A DNA stretch of 11,468 nt from an uncultured Cytophagia bacterium (GTDB taxonomy: Bacteria; Zhuqueibacterota; Zhuqueibacteria; Zhuqueibacterales; Zhuqueibacteraceae), in assembly GCA_964457925.1 (NCBI GenBank), contig CAYWGH010000024.1:81724-93191 (forward strand), read 5' to 3'. How positions within the stretch are numbered: position 1 is the stretch's first letter; each line of letters opens with the position of its first letter. The position numbers were made by a program, and so were the translations under genes. The notes beneath the pieces are model-generated. The model saw only the letters and a program-made list of their open reading frames with translations. It was not told the origin of the DNA and did not search any database. Of this stretch, positions 2,757 through 11,468 are shown piece after piece.

Positions 2757-2785
2757 TTGACAATCTTATGTGACAGTTGTATATT
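2757..2785 (+). promoter_or_regulatory. Near-consensus sigma70-type promoter facing the T4SS-like genes
   Basis: TTGACA (2757-2762), a 17-nt spacer, then TATATT (2780-2785). An A/T-rich UP-like tract (aaaaattttcctaaatttcaa) lies immediately upstream. No other start-proximal promoter is visible before gene 3170. Confidence 0.6.
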
Positions 2786-2791
2786 CGCGGC

Positions 2792-3075
2792 ACTCTTTGG
2801 GGTAGTCTCCATCAAAACCCGGGTAGCTCTGCGCGAAAGAGCTTAGGAGACTCCCAATTCTCCTACCTAATTCACTGCATCGTTCTCCTCAAGGAGAATG
2901 CTTCTCCCATTGGTCTGCCCAGTGAGGTAGATTCTCCGTAGTATCGATGTACAAACGAAACCGGATGTCGTCCCAGAGGTTGCCGCTGTCTCAGCTTCTT
3001 TTAGATTTGCTTCGCGTCTCATTATTCCTTGTCCAGCGCCGTACTGTTTCGCCGACGGCTTGATTCATTTTCTTC
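2792..3075 (+). promoter_or_regulatory. Long structured 5' leader or candidate cis-regulatory RNA (alternatively an oriT-like region)
   Basis: No credible ORF. Nested hairpins: gtctcc 2805-2810 pairs with ggagac 2846-2851 (extended by ggg/ccc), enclosing agctct 2825-2830 / agagct 2838-2843 with loop gcgcgaa. A further hairpin is ttctcc 2883-2888 / ggagaa 2893-2898 with loop tcaa. The exact hexamer TTCTCC occurs four times (2858, 2883, 2902, 2932). Confidence 0.4.
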
Positions 3076-3086
3076 AGGAGGAAGTC

Positions 3087-3173
3087 ATGAAGCCATGCAA
3101 CTTTTTTTCATATTCGCGAGTTAGTAGCCTCCTTTCCGGATACTGGTTGGCTGAATATAAGGATCTTTCGTGA
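3087..3173 (+). CDS. 28-codon upstream ORF / leader peptide, translationally coupled to the T4CP gene
   Basis: AGGAGG (3076-3081), a 5-nt spacer, then ATG 3087. Product is MKPCNFFSYSRVSSLLSGYWLAEYKDLS. Its TGA (3171-3173) overlaps the GTG start (3170-3172) of the next gene as GTGA. It is too short for the supplied ORF track. Confidence 0.45.
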   Translation: MKPCNFFSYSRVSSLLSGYWLAEYKDLS

Positions 3174-5053
3174 AGCGATTCGGCGAATTTCTCTTGAGCC
3201 TGCTGGCTCTCCCCTTCCTCTTGCCGTGGTATCTGGCGGAAAAGCTGTTCGAATATTTCATTCAACCGCTGATTTTCAAACACTATCGCATCGGCCTCGA
3301 TGCCCGCAAGAGAAGAATCGTTCGCCTCGTCATCATCGGCGCCGGCGCGCTTGTGCTTGCCTATCTCGGCTGGAAATTCTGGCAGGTGAGCCAACTGTTT
3401 CCCTCGATCCTGGCCTTTCTGTCCAAAGGACACGTTTACTTTTTGGCGATTCTCAACGATGCCATTCGACTTGCGCAAACACTGTTGTGGCCGCTCAACG
3501 TTACGTTGACGTTCATTCGGGGCGGGCTGGTCAATTTTTGGCATCTCGCGCTGGCACTCTACTTTTGTTTTTTGCCGGTTTTGTTCGCGTTCAATCTCGT
3601 GTTGCGCATTTTCACCACCTCACGCTCGCTGGGCAAGGCCGTCACGCTGCGCAATGAGGCGGTGCGCGATGTTGACATCGTGCGCTTCGCGGAAAAGGCC
3701 AAGCCCGATGAGATTTTCATCGGCATCGACATGAACCGCAACAACGCCCCGTTTTTTGTCAAACGCCAATGGCTCAAAGGCCACGCGCAAATCATCGGCG
3801 CGGCCGGCAGCGGCAAAACCGAAAACATCATTCAGCCAATTTGGTTTCAGGAAGTACGGCGCAATGTGGCCACCTTCGTCATCGACGGCAAAGGCTCGCG
3901 CCGAAATCTCGACCGGTTTTACACCATTGCCACTTCGCTGGCCCAGGGACACGAGGTGTTTTATTTCAACCCCGGCGATCCTGATCGTTCTGCGACTTAC
4001 AATCCCGTGCTGCGCGGCAATCCCGGCGAGATTCGGCAGAAGATTATCGCCAGCTTGAACTGGGCCGAGGCTGCCGCCGGCGCGAAAGAGCACACCGCGA
4101 ATTATCTCGATTTGATCATTCGCGCCATCAAAGAAACCGGGCGCTTTATCAGTCTCGACGAGATTTATAAATACTTCACCTCGAAGACGCATTTGCACAA
4201 CGAGCTGCGCAAGCTGCGCAATCGCGCGGCTTATGAAGGCCTGTTCGAGGTGATGGAAAATTACGCGCGCTTTCAAACCGAGACCGAGTTTCTCGCCACC
4301 GCGCTGCGCGAGGTTTGCCAGTCGGATTATGCCTGGTTGCTGGACACTGATGAGCCGGAGATCGACATTGCCGATATTTACCTGCGCCGCAAGGATTGTT
4401 ATTTCACGCTGCCAATGCACAGCGGCTCACCGGCCATGCACTTTCTCGGCCAACTGATTTTGCAAGACATGGCTACCAGTTTCGCGCGCGTCACGCTCAA
4501 TCCCATGTCTGAAGCAGGCTCGGGCAACGAGGGCTTGCTGATCATCGACGAGTTGGCGCATTTTGTCAATCCTGGTTTTATCGAGTTGCTGCGGGTGTGC
4601 CGCAACGCGCAGGTGAGCGTATGTTACACCAATCAATCGTTTGCCGAGCTAACAAATCCAGCACTGCATTTGCATACTTCTTTTGTGGAAGAATTGGCAG
4701 ATCACACCAACGCGACGTTTTGCTTTCATCTCGGCAGCGTGGAGAGCATTCGCACCGTCATGCAGCGCATCGGACAAAGCAGCAGCAAAGCTGAAGCAGA
4801 ACCCGCGCCTGCACCCGCTCCAAAGGGAAAACCCAGGCCCGGCCCCAGCACAGAAACACCCGCAGCAAGCAGAAGCAGCATAGCCATCACAGAAGATTTG
4901 CTCAAACATCTCGAAGTTGGGCGCTGCCTGGCCTTCATCCGCCAGCCGCGCGTTCTTGCAATTTTGAAGACGGGCTATTTCAAATTTGAAAAACCGTTGA
5001 GTTTTGAGGGGAGGAAGAGCAGCGTTGAGATGGTTGCGAAAACCGTTGCATAG
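3170..5053 (+). CDS. virD4: Type IV coupling protein-like ATPase (VirD4/TraD/TraG family) with a polytopic N-terminal membrane domain
   Basis: 627-aa ORF. GTG 3170 is the first start after the in-frame TAA at 3158. About 150 aa of N-terminal hydrophobic helices. Walker A GAAGSGKT (nt 3797-3820) and Walker B LLIIDE (nt 4535-4552). The membrane anchor plus FtsK/HerA-type NTPase architecture is typical of T4CPs. The gene symbol denotes the family analogue only. Confidence 0.8.
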   Translation: MKRFGEFLLSLLALPFLLPWYLAEKLFEYFIQPLIFKHYRIGLDARKRRIVRLVIIGAGALVLAYLGWKFWQVSQLFPSILAFLSKGHVYFLAILNDAIRLAQTLLWPLNVTLTFIRGGLVNFWHLALALYFCFLPVLFAFNLVLRIFTTSRSLGKAVTLRNEAVRDVDIVRFAEKAKPDEIFIGIDMNRNNAPFFVKRQWLKGHAQIIGAAGSGKTENIIQPIWFQEVRRNVATFVIDGKGSRRNLDRFYTIATSLAQGHEVFYFNPGDPDRSATYNPVLRGNPGEIRQKIIASLNWAEAAAGAKEHTANYLDLIIRAIKETGRFISLDEIYKYFTSKTHLHNELRKLRNRAAYEGLFEVMENYARFQTETEFLATALREVCQSDYAWLLDTDEPEIDIADIYLRRKDCYFTLPMHSGSPAMHFLGQLILQDMATSFARVTLNPMSEAGSGNEGLLIIDELAHFVNPGFIELLRVCRNAQVSVCYTNQSFAELTNPALHLHTSFVEELADHTNATFCFHLGSVESIRTVMQRIGQSSSKAEAEPAPAPAPKGKPRPGPSTETPAASRSSIAITEDLLKHLEVGRCLAFIRQPRVLAILKTGYFKFEKPLSFEGRKSSVEMVAKTVA

Positions 5054-5151
5054 TATTATGATATTATCGCGAGCCTCAAGTATGCAGTACCATTTTTGTA
5101 CGTGGATAAGTGCTATGCAGGGCCCAAAACGGGTTCTTGAACTAGTTCATT

Positions 5152-5727
5152 ATGATGAAAATTGAACTAATAACGCCTAGTATCGCCACATTATTGTACT
5201 TAGGAGCGTGGCTTGAGGGCGTACCGTCTATCACATCGCTAATCGGTGGTTTCATTGGAGGCTTCATCTCCGGTGTAATAAGTTTTTACTTGGCACACCT
5301 TGTAGGAGATCCTATTGTTCAATGGAATCAGTTGCGTTCAGACATCACGAGTGCAATAATATACTACATCAACATACTGTTGAGCGACGAGCAAACTTCA
5401 TCTCGTCAAAATGGACAAGAGGAATTACGAAGACTTGCCGCCAAAATTCGTGGTCTTTCACAAATAATTCGCATGAGATGGATTACTGAAAAGGTGTTCC
5501 AAATACCATCCGTGCTTCAGGCAGAAGAAGCGAGCAGCAAACTTATAGGCCTTAGCAATATTATCGCTGACATTAGATCCAACGACAAGTCATCTGCATA
5601 CAAAAGAATAGGTGTTTTTTCCTTCATTCAATCTATTGAAAAAATTATGCGTATCAAAATTGACCCAAACGTCCAAGAAAAACTCAAACGTGAACATGAG
5701 CTTATTAAACTCTATAATCAGTTGTAA
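5152..5727 (+). CDS. Hypothetical membrane protein: glycine-zipper TM region plus a helical soluble domain, encoded in a low-GC island
   Basis: 191-aa ORF that stays open in AT-rich DNA, where stop codons are frequent. N-terminal hydrophobic, glycine-rich segment LIGGFIGGFISGVISFYLAHLVG. Codons mostly end in A/T, unlike the neighbouring genes. No family motif recognised. Confidence 0.65.
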   Translation: MMKIELITPSIATLLYLGAWLEGVPSITSLIGGFIGGFISGVISFYLAHLVGDPIVQWNQLRSDITSAIIYYINILLSDEQTSSRQNGQEELRRLAAKIRGLSQIIRMRWITEKVFQIPSVLQAEEASSKLIGLSNIIADIRSNDKSSAYKRIGVFSFIQSIEKIMRIKIDPNVQEKLKREHELIKLYNQL

Positions 5728-5847
5728 AGATAGTTATTGCTACTTTCGTTACTAGCCTGGCCAAGATTGACATAATATTATTTTGTGGCATTCCGTTTCG
5801 AATCAAAACTCTCAAATCTACCTTCGGCAACTTTCAAGGAGGAAACT

Positions 5848-6090
5848 ATGCAAACCATCATTCAAGCCCTCAATCAACTGACCAATGCGCTGTTGATCCT
5901 GGCCTCGCCGGTTATGGTCATCGCGCTGATCATCGCCGGCCTCAACATGGCGAGCGCAGACGGCGGCCGGCATGAGAAAGCCAAAAAACAACTCATCGGC
6001 GTGGCGCTGGCGGCCATCGTGGTGTTTGGCTCCAAAGCCATCGTCTCCGCGCTGGTGTCGTTCGTGCCCGGCGCCAACGTGTCGTTTTAA
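5848..6090 (+). CDS. virB2: VirB2/TrbC-like T4SS pilin-type small membrane protein (80 aa)
   Basis: AAGGAGG (5836-5842), a 5-nt spacer, then ATG 5848. Two hydrophobic helices (LLILASPVMVIALIIAGL and LIGVALAAIVVFGSKAIVSAL) flank a short charged loop (ADGGRHEKAKKQ), the classic VirB2/TrbC layout. It lies upstream of VirB3-like and VirB4 genes. The GTG at 5785 in the ORF track lacks an SD and was not used. Confidence 0.65.
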   Translation: MQTIIQALNQLTNALLILASPVMVIALIIAGLNMASADGGRHEKAKKQLIGVALAAIVVFGSKAIVSALVSFVPGANVSF

Positions 6091-6168
6091 ATCAGCGATC
6101 TCGACAATTTCAAGCCGTACAACGCCGAAGGCGTGACATGATTATAGATTCAAATCAATTCCCAAGCT

Positions 6169-6246
6169 GGAACCCCGTCAGGGGTGACATGTTCGCACAA
6201 CAAAACAACATGTCACCCTTCCAGGGTTCTGACGAAATTGGGTTCC
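6169..6246. repeat. Long imperfect palindrome (hairpin repeat element) downstream of the pilin gene
   Basis: Perfect 12-bp stem: gggtgacatgtt (6182-6193) pairs with aacatgtcaccc (6207-6218). It is extended by cgtcag/ctgacg and by ggaaccc (6169-6175) / gggttcc (6240-6246). The flanking ctataaacatgccagccctagcgggc resembles a dispersed repeat type seen in environmental genomes. Confidence 0.7.
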
Positions 6247-6434
6247 CACATCTATAAACATGCCAGCCCTAGCGGGCTTAAAAAACAGTTTCATTTCATG
6301 CCGTGACGAAATCGGCTTGTCATGACACAAACCGAAACCCAAATGGCTTGAAAATCACAACGAGAAAAGCTCGACAAAAAGCATTATCCGTTGGGTTTTT
6401 CAATCCGCTGGAAAAATCTTTCTCAGCTTTGCTC

Positions 6435-6764
6435 ATGACCGAAAAATGCTATCGTGAAATCCAGGCGCACAGCCAGCTCGCGGGCGTCAGCCCGATTGAG
6501 GCCATCATCCTGCTGGCCGTGCCCATCGTACTTGCGCCGTTTTTCACGCTGATGGACATCAATCTGCTGTTCGCCTTCGTGATCGATATTTTCGTCTACG
6601 CCCTGCTGCGTTTCAGCAACCGGCTGTCGGGATTCGATCACGGGTTGGTGTCATTCATCAGTTATCATTTCATCTGGCCCAAGCAGCTTTCCGGCTTCAA
6701 GCTGGATGAGCATGATTATCTGCGGAAGAAAACCGAGCAGGAAAAGCGAGTAAACGCTGCCTGA
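6435..6764 (+). CDS. virB3: VirB3-like small inner-membrane T4SS protein (start uncertain; GTG 6303 is the alternative)
   Basis: 109 aa from ATG 6435. The N-proximal LAGVSPIEAIILLAVPIVLAPFF and second hydrophobic segment LLFAFVIDIFVYALL parallel the VirB3/TrbD pattern (xGVPxx followed by TM helices). It sits between the VirB2-like and VirB4 genes. No SD is seen, and the last 6 codons and the stop lie inside a repeat. Confidence 0.5.
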   Translation: MTEKCYREIQAHSQLAGVSPIEAIILLAVPIVLAPFFTLMDINLLFAFVIDIFVYALLRFSNRLSGFDHGLVSFISYHFIWPKQLSGFKLDEHDYLRKKTEQEKRVNAA

Positions 6765-6890
6765 GCTTGACTTCGGCGAGCTCAGTCGAGCCGTCGAAGG
6801 CAGCGGTCGTTGGCTTCGACAGGCTCAGCCGCCGAGTAAGCGCTGCCTGAGCTTGACTTCGGCGAGCTCAGTCGAGCCGTCGAAGGCAGC
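6748..6890. repeat. Tandem repeat (86-bp period, about 1.7 copies), same family as 1..186 but on the opposite strand
   Basis: gagtaaRcgctgcctgagcttgacttcggcgagctcagtcgagccgtcgaaggcagc occurs at 6748 and 6834. The segment ttcgacaggctcagccgccgagtaagcgctgcctgagcttg matches the reverse complement of the 1..186 unit (ttcgacaggcccagccaacgaatagccgctgcctgagcttg). Internal hairpins include ctgagct/agctcag and gtcgaag/cttcgac. Confidence 0.85.
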
Positions 6891-6937
6891 CAACCGCAAG
6901 GCCCGACAGACTTGACTTCACAGCCTCTCTTGTAATT

Positions 6938-7007
6938 GTCATTCTGAAAGAATCTTGTTGAGCATTCAGATCGTGCTCGAATCTTCAAAAGATTCCTGCG
7001 GAATGAC
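6938..7007. repeat. MITE-like inverted-repeat element (~70 bp) upstream of virB4
   Basis: gtcattc (6938-6944) pairs with gaatgac (7001-7007), and gaatctt (6950-6956) pairs with aagattc (6989-6995). A second gaatctt at 6979-6985 allows alternative folds. Confidence 0.55.
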
Positions 7008-7048
7008 GCACTGAGGAGGCGTCATCTAAGAAATATGAATTGAACTGA

Positions 7049-9502
7049 ATGGCAGCAACCAAACTCACAGAGCGGCAGGCTTATCAAAACCGGCCGGCGC
7101 TGGCGCTGTACCTGCCCTACCTCGAGGTGCTGGACGATTTCATCGTCAAGAAAAACGGCAATCTCGTGGCGGGCTTCGAATTGCAGGCGCTGGACAACAT
7201 GAGCCTGTCCGCCGATGCCTACACCAAGCTTTGCGCCAATCTTGAAAACGTGTTGAATGCGATCGACGAAGACGTCAATCTGCAATTCTCCTCGTTCTTT
7301 GACTATTTCCCCTATCAAGCGGATTTCGTCTACACCGAGGATGCCACGCTCGATTTCTTCAAGCAGCAGCGCCACAAGTATTACGGCTATTTCAAATACT
7401 TGATGTGCAAGATGTATGTGTTCGTGGATTTCGAGGCGGGCAAAAACCTGCGCACGCCCTACAATATTTTTGCCTCGAGCGCGAGCATCAAAACCCGGCT
7501 GCGCGCGGAACACGAGCGCCTGGTGCTGGAGAAGAACAACGCGCTGAAAACCATTCAGGCCGCGCTGGAAGGCACGGGCATCAAGCTGCGGCGATTGCGC
7601 AACAATGATCTCGCCACGGTGCTGTATCGCGCCATCAACATTTCCGCCAACGAATTCACCGGCAGCCTGCGCGGCAAAGCCACCAACAACGAATTGATTG
7701 CGAACGATTGCCAGGTTGAAAAAGGCTATCTCCGCATCGGCAATCAATACGTCGCGTGTCTTTCGCTGAGCTTGCTGCCGGAAGTTACGCGCGATCATAT
7801 CACGTTCAACGGCATTCCGCTGCCGTATCTGTTTCCGTTGCTGCACAATCTCGCGTTTCCGCATCGCGTGGTGTTTTCGACGCAGAATCTCGACATGGAA
7901 AAAGAGACGGCGCGCCTGAGCCGGCAGCTCAATTTCTCGCGCTTCATCATGAACTTCTCACGCCAGCGCGAAGGCCGCAAAAGCGAAGTCAAGTTCCGCG
8001 AGTTGAACGAGCTGATGGACGAGATTTACACGCAACACAAGCGCCTGGCCAGCATCAGCCTCAATGTTTTGGTTTATGACGATGATCTCGAACGCCTGAA
8101 TCAAAAGATCAATCAAACCCAACTCGCATTTGCCGCGGTGGACAAAGCGCAATCCGTGCTCGAAACCCTGGACATTTTGCCGATCTTCATCAGCAGCCTG
8201 CCGGGCAACAGCGCGGAAAATTATCACCGGCTGTTGGTGAAAACCTCGAATGCAGCACAGTTCATCAACCTGACCAATTTCAATCGCGGTTATCATCGCG
8301 GCGTGCTGATGAAGAACCGCAACAACGAACCGCTGCTGTTCGATTACTTCGATCAAAATTTGAATTCGTGGAACAGCATCATCGTGGGCCCGACGGGAAC
8401 CGGCAAGAGTTATTTGATGCAAGCGATGTTGCTGCAATTGCTCGAACAGGGCGTGAAGGTTTTCGGGCTGGATGTCGGCGGCGTGGGCGACATGGGCGGC
8501 AGTTACAAAAAGATGATCAAGCTGCTCAACGGCCGCTACGTCGAGTTGAACGTCGATCATCCCATTCCGCTGAATCCGTTTGCGCTGGTGAAATCCGAGG
8601 GCGTGGTTGATACCAAGAAGCTGCTCTTTCTGCGCGCCTTCATCGAAAAATTGATTTTGGAACGCGAGCAAACTTCGATCTCGAAAGTCGAACAGGCCTT
8701 CATCAGCAAGGCGATTGAAAAGTATCTCACGGAGTTCAACGGCAATCGCAATCTCAAAACGTTTGTCGATTTCTTCAGCCAGCAAGTCGATCCCGACGGT
8801 TATGTCGATGTCAAGCTGCTCAGCCGCAAGATGTACATTTACACCCACGGCGAGTACAGCCGCTTTTTATGCGCCGATGACATGATCGACATTCGCGAAG
8901 ATTTAGTCTGCTTCGATTTGAAGGGACTCGAAACCCATCCGGATTTGCAGGGCATTATCGCCATCATCATCACCGGTTTGTTGTGGGATTTGATGGAGCG
9001 CAATCTCAGCCACAACAAAGTCATCTTCGCGGACGAGTTGTGGAAGGTTTTGGATGACAATTCGACCATCGGCCATCTGGTCGTTGAATTGTTCCGCACC
9101 GCGCGCAAAATGGGCGCAGGGATTTTTGCAATTTCGCAGTCGATTGAAGACATCGACTCCGTAAGTTTTTCCGCGCCGATCAAGGACAATGCGCTGAATC
9201 ACTTTATTCTGGCGCATAAACCAAAACAACTGGAAACGCTGTCGCGCGCATTCGGCTACGGCGAACGCGAGCTGGCGTTGATTTCCAGCCTGCAGCGCGG
9301 CGAGTTTCTGCTGGATCGCGACGGCCGCATCACGGTGTTGCGCGCGGACATGAGTACGTATGATCATTACCTCTTCACCACCGACCGGCAAGAGAACAAT
9401 TTGTTGGAAGGCAAGTTGAAGAAGCATCAGGGCAACTTGATCAAGGCGATCAAGGAGATTGCCGTGGAAAAGGATTTGGAGATTTCGCCGTATTTGTTGT
9501 GA
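7049..9502 (+). CDS. virB4: VirB4/TrbE/TraC-family T4SS ATPase
   Basis: 817-aa ORF. An in-frame TGA lies immediately upstream (7046-7048), so ATG 7049 is the first possible start. Walker A GPTGTGKS (nt 8387-8410) and Walker B VIFADE (nt 9020-9037). Size and N-terminal domain are typical of VirB4, and it follows the VirB2-like and VirB3-like genes. Confidence 0.92.
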   Translation: MAATKLTERQAYQNRPALALYLPYLEVLDDFIVKKNGNLVAGFELQALDNMSLSADAYTKLCANLENVLNAIDEDVNLQFSSFFDYFPYQADFVYTEDATLDFFKQQRHKYYGYFKYLMCKMYVFVDFEAGKNLRTPYNIFASSASIKTRLRAEHERLVLEKNNALKTIQAALEGTGIKLRRLRNNDLATVLYRAINISANEFTGSLRGKATNNELIANDCQVEKGYLRIGNQYVACLSLSLLPEVTRDHITFNGIPLPYLFPLLHNLAFPHRVVFSTQNLDMEKETARLSRQLNFSRFIMNFSRQREGRKSEVKFRELNELMDEIYTQHKRLASISLNVLVYDDDLERLNQKINQTQLAFAAVDKAQSVLETLDILPIFISSLPGNSAENYHRLLVKTSNAAQFINLTNFNRGYHRGVLMKNRNNEPLLFDYFDQNLNSWNSIIVGPTGTGKSYLMQAMLLQLLEQGVKVFGLDVGGVGDMGGSYKKMIKLLNGRYVELNVDHPIPLNPFALVKSEGVVDTKKLLFLRAFIEKLILEREQTSISKVEQAFISKAIEKYLTEFNGNRNLKTFVDFFSQQVDPDGYVDVKLLSRKMYIYTHGEYSRFLCADDMIDIREDLVCFDLKGLETHPDLQGIIAIIITGLLWDLMERNLSHNKVIFADELWKVLDDNSTIGHLVVELFRTARKMGAGIFAISQSIEDIDSVSFSAPIKDNALNHFILAHKPKQLETLSRAFGYGERELALISSLQRGEFLLDRDGRITVLRADMSTYDHYLFTTDRQENNLLEGKLKKHQGNLIKAIKEIAVEKDLEISPYLL

Positions 9503-9630
9503 GCGTTTTTATTTTGAATGAGGCCCGAATGCTGCGCCGCTTCATAAAAATTTTGCTCTGTGCTTTTTGCCCCCTGCTCCTTGCCCTTTGCCTCTTGCCC
9601 CTGCCCGCGTGCAAGAAGCCGACGGAGCCG
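9464..9630 (+). repeat. Segmental duplication, copy A (virB4 3' end, spacer and lipoprotein signal peptide)
   Basis: 9464-9591 is identical to 10754-10881 (128 bp). A 9-nt patch with 6 differences follows, then 9601-9630 is identical to 10891-10920 (30 bp). Confidence 0.95.
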
Positions 9631-10605
9631 AAAGCCGCTCTGCCCGACACCACCAGCCACGACTTTGTGTTCGAGATTGACACCTTCGGCAACGGCAGTT
9701 CGAGTGTGCTGAATGACGTGTGCATCATTGATGAAAACAACATCTGGGCAGTAGGCGAGATTTATGTGCAAGGCGCCACCGGCCAATCGGAAGAGGTTTA
9801 CAACGCGGTGCATTGGGATGGCAAGCAATGGAATCATGTCAAAGTGCCTGTGAAAGACTTTGGGGGCTTGATCGCTACTATTCCACTTAGAACTGTTTTA
9901 GGATTTGCATCAAATGACGTTTGGGTCGCCAGCAGCGGCAGTTTAATTCGTTGGAATGGGTCCTTCTGGAGTGAAAAAGCCTTTTTTGTAACGGATCTAA
10001 CTTTCAATGGGCAAGTGCTAAAAATGTGGGGCGCGAGCGGTTCGAATATTTACTGCGTTGGCCGCAACGGTGCAATTTATCATTTCGACGGCAGCACTTG
10101 GCAAAAGCTCGTGAGCGGCACGACGGTGGACATTCAAGACATCTGGGGCGCGGGGCAAACGGTGCTCGCGGTGGCATCGTTAGTGAATTACGGCAGAGCG
10201 TTGGATTTGCTGAAAATTGAAGGTGCTACCGTCACAAAACTGGACACAGCAGGTTTACGGATTGCTGAAAGCAGTCTATGGTTTGCGCCTGGCAAAGTTT
10301 ATTATATCGCCGGTGACGGACTGTTTCAAAAATCCGGATTGGCAGAACAACGATGGCAATTCAATGCTTTTCAACCTTCAATTTATATCGACCGTATCCG
10401 CGCAAATGCTTCGAATGATATTTTTGTTTGCGGCTCTTTTGGCTTTTTGGCGCATTACAACGGCTCGACCTGGAAAGATTATACCGGTTCAGAAGCGCCG
10501 CAATTTTTCTCGCGCTACAAAGGCTTGAGCGTGAAGCAAGACGTAGTTGCAGCGGTTGGTTGGATGAATGATCATGCTATAATTGTACGAGGCAAACGAA
10601 GGTAA
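9529..10605 (+). CDS. Lipoprotein with beta-propeller-type repeats (paralogue 1)
   Basis: GAGG (9520-9523), a 5-nt spacer, then ATG 9529. The signal peptide MLRRFIKILLCAFCPLLLALCLLPLPAC ends in the lipobox LPAC (Cys28, nt 9610-9612). Blade-like motifs recur every ~45-50 aa (NIWAVGEIY..HWDGKQW, DVWVASSGSLIRWNGSFW, NIYCVGRNGAIYHFDGSTW, DIFVCGSFGFLAHYNGSTW). The alternative in-frame GTG 9499 overlaps the virB4 stop as GTGA. Confidence 0.8.
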   Translation: MLRRFIKILLCAFCPLLLALCLLPLPACKKPTEPKAALPDTTSHDFVFEIDTFGNGSSSVLNDVCIIDENNIWAVGEIYVQGATGQSEEVYNAVHWDGKQWNHVKVPVKDFGGLIATIPLRTVLGFASNDVWVASSGSLIRWNGSFWSEKAFFVTDLTFNGQVLKMWGASGSNIYCVGRNGAIYHFDGSTWQKLVSGTTVDIQDIWGAGQTVLAVASLVNYGRALDLLKIEGATVTKLDTAGLRIAESSLWFAPGKVYYIAGDGLFQKSGLAEQRWQFNAFQPSIYIDRIRANASNDIFVCGSFGFLAHYNGSTWKDYTGSEAPQFFSRYKGLSVKQDVVAAVGWMNDHAIIVRGKRR

Positions 10606-10645
10606 TTGTATGCAGTTTAGAAACGATGAAAGCAAGGAGGCAGTC

Positions 10646-10792
10646 ATGAAGTCAATCAACCTGATATCGTTCATGGCCATGACATGGATCATGATCCATG
10701 CAAACAATGTCACAGCGCAAGCGCCAATTTTCGGAAACACGCGCGCACAATCAGTGGAAAAGGATTTGGAGATTTCGCCGTATTTGTTGTGA
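10646..10792 (+). CDS. Small ORF (48 aa) with a Sec-type signal peptide; its C-terminal 12 residues are a duplicated virB4 tail
   Basis: AAGGAGG (10634-10640), a 5-nt spacer, then ATG 10646. Product is MKSINLISFMAMTWIMIHANNVTAQA-PIFGNTRAQSVEKDLEISPYLL. The last 12 codons and the TGA are identical to the end of virB4. It could be a real gene or a duplication scar. Confidence 0.35.
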   Translation: MKSINLISFMAMTWIMIHANNVTAQAPIFGNTRAQSVEKDLEISPYLL

Positions 10793-10920
10793 GCGTTTTT
10801 ATTTTGAATGAGGCCCGAATGCTGCGCCGCTTCATAAAAATTTTGCTCTGTGCTTTTTGCCCCCTGCTCCTTGCCCTTTGCTTTCTCTCTCTGCCCGCGT
10901 GCAAGAAGCCGACGGAGCCG
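10754..10920 (+). repeat. Segmental duplication, copy B
   Basis: Offset of exactly 1290 bp from copy A. See feature 9464..9630. Confidence 0.95.
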
Positions 10921-11468
10921 CAGCCAATTGCCAAGCCTGACACCACGAGCCACGACTTCGTGTTTGGTATAGACACCCTGGGCGCTGATGTTTTCGGCTA
11001 TCCTAGTTTTCTGAAAGACGTTACCATGATTGACGAAAACAATGTCTGGGCAGTGGGCCAGATTTATTTGAACGATTCGTCCGGGCAATTGGAAAATCAA
11101 GCATATAATGCTGTTCATTGGGATGGAAAAAAGTGGAGTTTTCAAAAAGTTCCGGTCAAAGATTTCGGCGGCATCACTTCTTCTTTTCCTCTTGAGGCAG
11201 TTTTAGGATTCGCACAAAATGATATTTGGGTTACAAGCAGCGCTGGCTTAATTCGGTGGAATGGGTCATTTTGGAGTGAAAAAGCCTTCTTTATGACGGA
11301 TTTGTCTTTCAATGGCCAGGTTCTAAAAATGTGGGGCAAGAACGGCTCAAACATTTACTGTGTTGGCAGAAACGGCGCAATTTATCATTACAACGGCAGC
11401 ATCTGGCACAAGCTGGAAAGCGGCACGGACATCGATTTGGTCGACATCTGGGGCACTGGCGATGATGA
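10819..11468 (+). CDS. Lipoprotein with beta-propeller-type repeats (paralogue 2, 3' end outside the window)
   Basis: The frame is open from ATG 10819 to the window end, and is absent from the ORF track because it has no stop. The signal peptide and LPAC lipobox are near-identical to paralogue 1. Downstream residues align colinearly (DENNVWAVGQIY, HWDGKKW, LIRWNGSFWSEKAFF, NIYCVGRNGAIYHYNGSIW), with roughly two-thirds to three-quarters identity by eye. Confidence 0.8.
   Translation, partial: MLRRFIKILLCAFCPLLLALCFLSLPACKKPTEPQPIAKPDTTSHDFVFGIDTLGADVFGYPSFLKDVTMIDENNVWAVGQIYLNDSSGQLENQAYNAVHWDGKKWSFQKVPVKDFGGITSSFPLEAVLGFAQNDIWVTSSAGLIRWNGSFWSEKAFFMTDLSFNGQVLKMWGKNGSNIYCVGRNGAIYHYNGSIWHKLESGTDIDLVDIWGTGDD

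Follow-up and report, generated by a model that had tools for sequence, protein, structure and literature searches.

The window analysed here, an 11,468-nt stretch of a contig from an uncultured Cytophagia bacterium (CAYWGH010000024.1 in assembly GCA_964457925.1, positions 81,724 to 93,191), carries a co-oriented block of genes for a type IV secretion system (T4SS), comprising a type IV coupling protein (T4CP), a pilin, a small membrane protein and a VirB4-family ATPase, with two paralogous lipoproteins encoded behind them. We compared the window genes with two profile libraries, Pfam (with its gathering scores, GA) and NCBIfam (with its curated family cutoffs), and compared the locus with a set of seven genome loci and further contigs reached via identical or homologous proteins, which are denoted below by L numbers. 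The nearest loci in reference genomes include metagenome-assembled genomes (MAGs) of Ca. Coneutiohabitans thermophilus; Ca. Coneutiohabitans is a member of Ca. Zhuqueibacterota within the Fibrobacterota-Chlorobiota-Bacteroidota (FCB) group, and several identical or near-identical proteins carry the label 'candidate division KSB1'.

The T4SS core that had been called from the sequence (T4CP, VirB2 and VirB4) was borne out by Pfam, NCBIfam and PDB matches, with each ATPase matching profiles of its expected family. On sequence grounds the VirB4 identity of the larger ATPase is unambiguous: it matches P-loop_TraG in Pfam at 5.8e-37 (127.7 bits, GA 25.8) and CagE_TrbE_VirB at 22 bits (cutoff 21), AAA_10 was also matched, and searches against PDB returned VirB4/TrwK; the NCBIfam matches to TraC-F-type (1.6e-69) and VirB4_CagE (3.8e-54) lie below every curated cutoff. 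The T4CP-like ATPase has significant E-values to NCBIfam SXT_TraD (4.4e-22) and TOL TraD (5.9e-12) and a match to Pfam TraG-D_C (0.003), all below curated or family cutoffs, and its family profile matches DotL/IcmO (1.7e-5). Its Walker A (GAAGSGKT) and Walker B (LLIIDE) motifs are invariant in 11 T4CP orthologues, and hydrophobic or transmembrane (TM) segments are predicted at its N-terminus. The start of this gene, originally placed at ATG 3087, had to be moved; that ATG opens a 28-codon open reading frame (ORF) in another frame, and the true start is GTG 3170, in agreement with the conserved N-terminus of the orthologues. The pilin exceeds the gathering scores of both T4SS_pilin (35.5 bits, GA 26.6) and TrbC (33.8 bits, GA 27.9) and has two predicted TM helices; the 80-aa form opens at ATG 5848, and the genes at that position in relatives likewise encode 80 aa. 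The third gene occupies the place of virB3, and the label 'VirB3-like' fits by position, ~105-aa size and modelled topology only: the AlphaFold2 (AF2) model (predicted local distance difference test, pLDDT, 68) is a TM helical hairpin, there is no match in Pfam, NCBIfam, PDB sequences (family profile) or Foldseek (AF2 model), and the 74 homologue clusters are every one without a Pfam domain.

The order T4CP, variable genes (slot 1), pilin, VirB3-like and VirB4 is common to all relatives examined, so that the placement of the T4CP gene upstream of the pilin gene, which had been singled out as unusual, is the rule in this group. Downstream of virB4, the relatives (about 13 loci) continue with a secreted coiled-coil protein (~280-320 aa); a ~335-aa polytopic VirB6-like protein, for which several TM segments are predicted and which weakly matches the NCBIfam CD3337/EF1877 'mobilome membrane protein' family; a 192-aa bitopic protein with faint VirB8 matches; a ~282-aa protein with DUF4138 (TraN; 52.5 bits) and CagX/VirB9 domains, above GA; a ~306-aa bitopic protein matching Transposon_TraM (45.2 bits, above GA); and, as genes 6 and 7, a PKD-repeat protein, which is a conserved member of the 3′ end of the operon, and a ~211-aa protein. 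NCBIfam likewise returned TraN, VirB9 and TraM matches for these genes, and the VirB6-like and VirB8-like family profiles gave nothing significant against PDB sequences. Channel genes of this kind lie 3′ of virB4 in L001, L003, L004, L006, L007, L008-L011 and L103. Relatives whose VirB4 is 90-95% identical to that of the window have the VirB6-like, VirB8-like, TraN/VirB9 and TraM genes right after virB4 and no lipoprotein gene, and in L005 and L012 virB4 is followed by a lipoprotein gene, a gene for a BNR-repeat protein and then the same channel genes. In L008, a 379-kb contig whose VirB4 is 90% identical to that of the window, the T4SS block lies between the SpoIID gene that the window also has and a peptidase S9 gene; as this locus has the full set of channel genes, the lineage owns channel-type genes and the window stops short of them. 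No analogue of VirB6, B8, B9 or B10 lies inside the window, which ends within the gene for lipoprotein B, before their expected place; the channel genes of the source genome would lie outside the observed DNA.

Table 1 Features of the window and the grounds on which each was called.
Feature	Coordinates	Strand	Basis or remark
Promoter-like site TTGACA-17-TATATT	2757..2785	+	5′ of the T4SS block; 11/12 consensus match
Non-coding element, nested inverted repeats GGGGTAGTCTCC...AGCTCTGCGCGAAAGAGC...GGAGACTCCC...TCTCCTACC	2790..2867	+	Conserved in VirB4 clades A, B and C
28-codon upstream ORF	3087..3173	+	Different frame from T4CP; TGA overlaps the T4CP GTG (GTGA)
T4CP-like ATPase, 627 aa, N-terminal membrane anchor	3170..5053	+	Profile matches, Walker motifs, predicted TM segments
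191-aa ORF, slot 1 between T4CP and pilin genes	5152..5727	+	GC 0.42 vs ~0.53 elsewhere
VirB2/TrbC-type pilin, 80 aa	5848..6090	+	T4SS_pilin and TrbC profiles
~105-aa conserved membrane protein, VirB3 position	6435..6764	+	Position, size, topology; best start 6435
~86-nt interspersed repeat, two copies	6747..6890	.	Spacer 5′ of virB4; inverted copies at 1-178
VirB4-family ATPase, 817 aa	7049..9502	+	Pfam, NCBIfam and PDB matches
Lipoprotein A, 7-bladed Ycf48-like beta-propeller, 358 aa	9529..10605	+	First gene of lipoprotein + BNR cassette
Duplication-junction remnant, 48-codon ORF	10646..10792	+	BNR 5′ 36 codons fused to virB4 last 12 codons and stop
Lipoprotein B, paralogue of A	10819..11468	+	Cut by window end

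The description of the two lipoproteins as paralogous and propeller-like proved accurate. They are 72% identical in amino acid sequence, and the gene for lipoprotein A starts 26 nt past the virB4 stop, co-oriented with it. The N-terminus (...LLPLPAC/KKP) forms a signal peptide, combining a hydrophobic helix with a lipobox cysteine, Cys28, that is invariant in 44 homologues, as in lipoproteins. Structure prediction and a Foldseek search, both proposed at the outset for the gene of lipoprotein A, gave a seven-bladed propeller (AF2 model, pLDDT 90.5, predicted template modelling score 0.84) with Ycf48 as the best match in PDB (E 8e-12, template modelling score 0.62-0.74) and generic WD40 propellers next. 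Lipoprotein A has no Pfam match, PSII_BNR (PF14870) included, and resembles that family in fold alone; searches of PDB sequences with the lipoprotein profile and with the BNR protein gave no matches. The lipoprotein family spans at least 1108 database clusters from Ignavibacteriota, Calditrichia, Bacteroidota and others, is without a Pfam domain, and includes members labelled 'glucosyl transferase'.

Homologues of at least 57% identity (P0002, P0005, P0007, P0009, P0012) are all encoded immediately 3′ of virB4. This linkage was seen in six further loci, where a ~1300-aa protein with BNR_2 and Por_Secre_tail domains is always next; we refer to the two genes as the cassette, and to its site between virB4 and the next T4SS gene as slot 2. 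The gaps are short, 10-40 nt around the lipoprotein gene (one of 157 nt in L012) and 26-97 nt from the BNR gene to the next T4SS gene (L005, L012). In L005 the Por_Secre_tail match scores 33.4 bits (GA 27), and the domain is also found in L100, L012 and L016, with the C-terminal domain motif visible, which marks the BNR partner in relatives as cargo of the type IX secretion system (T9SS); the window shows the first 36 codons of one copy. At identities of 49% or less, the pair of lipoprotein and ~1300-aa BNR/T9SS protein occurs in T4SS-free contexts, among NiFe-hydrogenase genes (Calditrichaceae), serine-pathway and TonB-receptor genes (a Bacteroidota MAG) or metabolic genes (L099). We also sampled 80 metagenome loci encoding lipoprotein homologues at 33-47% identity and examined ±6 kb by tblastn. 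None of the 80 matched VirB4, the T4CP, the pilin or five downstream T4SS proteins, a match to the BNR body was present in 18 of the 30 loci having at least 2.5 kb downstream, and two or three tandem lipoprotein copies occurred in 14/80; judged from these sequences, tandem paralogy is a habit of the lipoprotein family. Since the BNR/T9SS pairing holds in T4SS-linked and unlinked loci alike, the conserved functional neighbour of the lipoprotein is the BNR/T9SS protein and not virB4. The synteny with virB4 that had been put up for checking is accordingly present in the six further loci, absent from the sampled loci outside the lineage and patchy within clades; by this gene-neighbourhood comparison the linkage is real but limited to one lineage, and to some of its loci. 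BNR proteins of T4SS-linked cassettes are 55-80% identical to one another, compared with 35-42% to unlinked ones, which suggests that the cassette was captured once, long ago, and has since undergone loss, exchange and fast divergence.

The second lipoprotein copy of the window appears to have a local origin. The remnant ORF between the copies consists of MKSINLISFMAMTWIMIHANNVTAQAPIFGNTRAQS joined to VEKDLEISPYLL and a stop codon, with the junction at ~10753/10754; MKSINLISFMAMTWIMIHANNVTAQAPIFGNTRAQS matches the BNR N-termini of L013 (MKSINLLSLVAMIWIMIHANNVSAQVPIFGNTRAQSEPH...) and L012, and VEKDLEISPYLL is the VirB4 C-terminus. The 147 nt 3′ of lipoprotein A (10606-10752) share ~80% identity with the stretch of L013 that covers its lipoprotein-BNR spacer and the start of its BNR gene, and past ~10753/10754 the last 39 nt of virB4 recur, followed by a repeat of the virB4-lipoprotein spacer and the signal-peptide region. 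At the junction, BNR codon 36 is joined to virB4 codon 806 with no k-mer in common. This arrangement bears the signature of a tandem duplication in the source genome of a unit [virB4 tail - lipoprotein - BNR 5′ end], which would have produced lipoprotein B and the chimeric remnant. The duplication units (9464-9590 and 10754-10880) are 100% identical for ~130 nt, over the virB4 tail, the spacer and the signal-peptide region, after which identity falls abruptly to ~75%; this mosaic suggests recent gene conversion, or else that a divergent allele has taken the place of the lipoprotein body. An independent version is found in L012, with an interrupted lipoprotein gene, a BNR fragment of ~85 codons, a lipoprotein gene and a full BNR gene. 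The duplication is the reason why both lipoprotein starts look linked to the virB4 stop, as had been remarked; the linkage is genuine for copy A, and in front of copy B there is the duplicated 39-nt virB4 tail and no second virB4. It also predicts a full BNR gene 3′ of copy B, past the window end.

Presence of the cassette is patchy among close relatives. Three VirB4 clades can be distinguished, namely A (90-98% identity; window, L001, L008, L013, L098), B (94-99%; L004, L005, L100) and C (89-92%; L003, L007, L012), with L006 outside all three, and in each clade some members have the cassette and others do not; L100 has it and L004 lacks it, with VirB4 proteins that are 99% identical. Among the sequences compared, lipoprotein similarity does not follow VirB4 similarity: L013 and L098 have 98% identical VirB4 and 60% identical lipoproteins, and the closest lipoprotein to window copy A is that of the clade-B locus L100 (80%). 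The DNA of L013 and L098 is 93% identical from 5′ of the T4CP gene to ~300 nt inside the lipoprotein gene, past which one ~190-nt lipoprotein stretch aligns (76%) and the BNR gene is 67% identical; from this alignment, the point of divergence (L013 10306, L098 8360) is a recombination breakpoint inside the lipoprotein gene. Patchy presence and recombination breakpoints together therefore mark the cassette as a variable accessory module and not as core machinery.

The reading that we regard as probable is that the window represents the 5′ half of a complete, divergent T4SS operon resembling mating-pair formation class B (MPF_B), with a lipoprotein + BNR cassette lodged in slot 2. Such an operon would be typical of Ca. 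Zhuqueibacterota and 'KSB1'-labelled FCB bacteria, and would begin with a promoter and leader, continue with T4CP, slot 1, pilin, VirB3-like, VirB4 and slot 2, and close with the secreted coiled-coil protein, VirB6-like, VirB8-like, TraN/VirB9, TraM, a PKD lipoprotein and one further gene. The cassette itself would consist of an outer-membrane Ycf48-like propeller lipoprotein and a BNR/Asp-box protein of ~1300 aa whose C-terminus carries a T9SS sorting domain; it seems to be widespread in FCB phyla without a nearby T4SS, one clade having presumably taken up residence directly behind virB4, ahead of the next T4SS gene. A full-length BNR gene and the channel genes would be expected in the source genome ~0.4-5 kb past the window end. 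Given the short gaps in the operon, the cassette is probably co-transcribed with the T4SS genes, and the lipoprotein, anchored in the outer membrane, may pair at the cell surface with the BNR protein that the T9SS exports. The pair could thus form a variable cell-surface complex that would at most aid cell contact or recognition; it would be dispensable for the machine because near-identical T4SS loci lack it, and its fast turnover through recombination is in keeping with a surface structure that is exposed and under selection. Whether the cassette has an accessory role in T4SS-mediated contact or recognition we hold to be nearly a balanced question, leaning slightly towards no.

Several points weigh against this account of the locus. 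The BNR and channel genes of the source genome are placed there by extrapolation from relatives, co-transcription and a physical lipoprotein-BNR interaction are putative, the VirB6-like, VirB8-like and first post-virB4 genes are without a significant profile match, and the long residence of the cassette in T4SS loci of three clades could speak for a more integral role than 'accessory'. The cassette might equally be less than accessory, a pure passenger unrelated to the T4SS that occupies a permissive intergenic site and is spread and lost by homologous recombination via the flanking T4SS genes. Its patchiness in every VirB4 clade, down to the pair with 99% identical VirB4, its occurrence in unrelated contexts in Calditrichia, Bacteroidota and others, and the collection of unrelated genes in slot 1 are all what a passenger would show; nevertheless, T4SS-linked cassettes form a similarity group of their own, consistent with one old capture kept in three clades, they are embedded tightly in the operon, and other BNR/Sortilin/PKD proteins with T9SS tails recur at T4SS loci. 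We consider a mere passenger rather unlikely, while taking it seriously. In the opposite direction, one may postulate that a chromosomally fixed, relaxase-less T4SS of MPF_B ancestry recruited T9SS-exported BNR/Sortilin and PKD proteins, with the lipoprotein, as a hypervariable recognition or contact module; this bolder proposal is improbable, and if true it would mean that type IX and type IV secretion are functionally coupled and that a recombining lipoprotein + BNR cassette sets target specificity.

Two further explanations concern the lipoproteins as they stand in the window. The tandem copies could stem from mis-assembly of two strain alleles in a metagenome; the source is a MAG contig, and copies that are identical for ~130 nt and then ~75% identical are what two collapsed alleles might look like. 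A junction without a shared k-mer is not a product of graph assemblers, however, L012 independently shows the succession of lipoprotein, BNR fragment, lipoprotein and BNR, and tandem copies occur in 14 of the 80 unrelated loci; on these three grounds mis-assembly was rejected as the source of the tandem copy, and we regard it as very improbable. The original prediction went further, proposing a compact, undescribed T4SS variant in which lineage-specific lipoproteins replace VirB5/6/7/8/9/10. The view had in its favour the short, co-oriented step from virB4 to the lipoprotein gene, the recurrence of this linkage in six further loci and the absence of any visible channel gene from the window. 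The window ends inside lipoprotein B, however, channel genes directly follow virB4 in the lipoprotein-free relatives with 90-95% identical VirB4, the lipoprotein-bearing L005 and L012 keep them, and outside the lineage T4SS genes accompany the lipoprotein homologues in 0/80 loci. Replacement is therefore scarcely credible; a channel replaced by propeller lipoproteins would be remarkable, and here the impression arises from the position of the window end. The more modest finding left standing is a divergent T4SS family of an uncultured FCB phylum, situated among housekeeping genes with no relaxase within ~10 kb and provided with two variable slots, one of which repeatedly hosts a fast-recombining pair of lipoprotein and T9SS cargo. 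Annotators gain a concrete gene order for this family, and a widespread two-gene surface cassette is defined whose more than 1000 homologues are without a family assignment.

Upstream of the T4CP gene, the TTGACA and TATATT hexamers of the promoter-like site are unchanged across 10 loci from three VirB4 clades (window, L001, L003, L004, L005, L007, L008, L012, L013, L098). The same loci carry the non-coding element, ~78 nt in length, which is near-invariant over the three clades and lies ~300 nt 5′ of the T4CP gene. No Rfam family matched the element, and RNAalifold found no consistent structure and no clear covariation in it; candidates for its role are a leader RNA, an operator and an origin of transfer (oriT). 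A strong Shine-Dalgarno sequence precedes the 28-codon upstream ORF, and in clade-A relatives the alignment shows a 29-codon ORF in its place, unrelated in sequence; this arrangement suggests translational coupling or a leader peptide.

The content of slot 1 differs between loci, from the low-GC 191-aa orphan of the window to an 863-aa BNR/Sortilin-like protein in L001 and five unrelated genes in L008. The orphan has one predicted TM segment and no Pfam or NCBIfam family match, and nothing in the related loci corresponds to it. Other large proteins of the Sortilin/BNR/PKD kind, in part with T9SS tails, recur in or beside these T4SS loci (L004 2-6507, L001 4114-6705, L008 17234-18556). The more distant L103, which has the same T4SS type, is the only locus with toxin-antitoxin/AbiE genes upstream (PemK toxin and AbiEi/AbiEii, directly adjacent, 3856-6482); in it a DUF5678 gene is inserted as an additional member between those for the VirB3-like protein and VirB4. 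The window has a GC content of ~0.52 and begins with two minus-strand genes, a SpoIID/LytB gene (186-1511) and an ICMT/PEMT-like methyltransferase gene (1673-2359), after which comes the plus-strand block. A repeat of ~86-89 nt is present as two tandem copies at 1-178 and two at 6747-6890, the two sites being mutually inverted; the second site adds to the distance from the VirB3-like gene to virB4, which is 284 nt here and ~130 nt in L008, and Logan contig L101 ends with one further copy. Scans of the window found no tRNA and no Rfam family, and sigma-70 and terminator scans were of no help in placing the operon boundaries.

The absence of a visible relaxase, which the original prediction had reported for the window, extends, within ~10 kb, to every relative. 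Among the Pfam families recorded for, or detected in, the genes of the window, L008-L014, L098-L100 and L103 and the flanks of L001 and L003-L006 (~±10 kb), we found no relaxase, integrase or primase, and thus no combination of a relaxase with integrase or replication genes such as defines a conjugative element. The flanks consist of housekeeping genes (SpoIID, peptidase S9, NAD synthase, glutamine synthetase III, a PALP/CBS enzyme and ATP sulfurylase), and a relaxase may be encoded elsewhere in the genome. The system is best described as a divergent T4SS with MPF_B affinities, which is not described in the paper on Zhuqueibacterota, where T4SS and conjugation go without mention (PMC11683472).

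Comparison with known systems bears on both the lipoprotein and the operon. Lipoprotein A shares its seven-bladed propeller fold with the photosystem II assembly factor Ycf48/HCF136, its best structural match, but differs from it in sequence (~16% identity), in its predicted lipidation, in its non-phototrophic context and in its giant T9SS cargo partner; the common fold indicates nothing on a common function. Conjugation systems have variable surface or adhesin determinants, such as the F-like TraN alleles and the R64 PilV shufflon. The present cassette has no homology to these and also exists without any T4SS, whereas the analogy lies in a fast-diverging, recombining surface-protein locus within a conserved transfer operon. 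The operon itself is most usefully set against the MPF_B systems of Bacteroidota (the CTnDOT-type traE-traQ operon). It departs from them in that the T4CP leads the operon, no relaxase, integrase or mob genes lie within ~10 kb, the relatives' loci give no profile matches to TraJ or TraK (Pfam, NCBIfam), the Zhuqueibacterota locus has T9SS-tailed BNR/PKD proteins embedded among its genes, and the VirB4 of the window scores higher on the F-type TraC model than on the Bacteroidota TraG model (Bac_Flav_CT_G, 109 bits against a cutoff of 261). In common with MPF_B, however, it has a pilin, a small membrane protein and a VirB4 with P-loop_TraG in the same order, the relatives carry TraN (DUF4138/CagX) and TraM (Transposon_TraM) downstream, and the host belongs to the FCB group.

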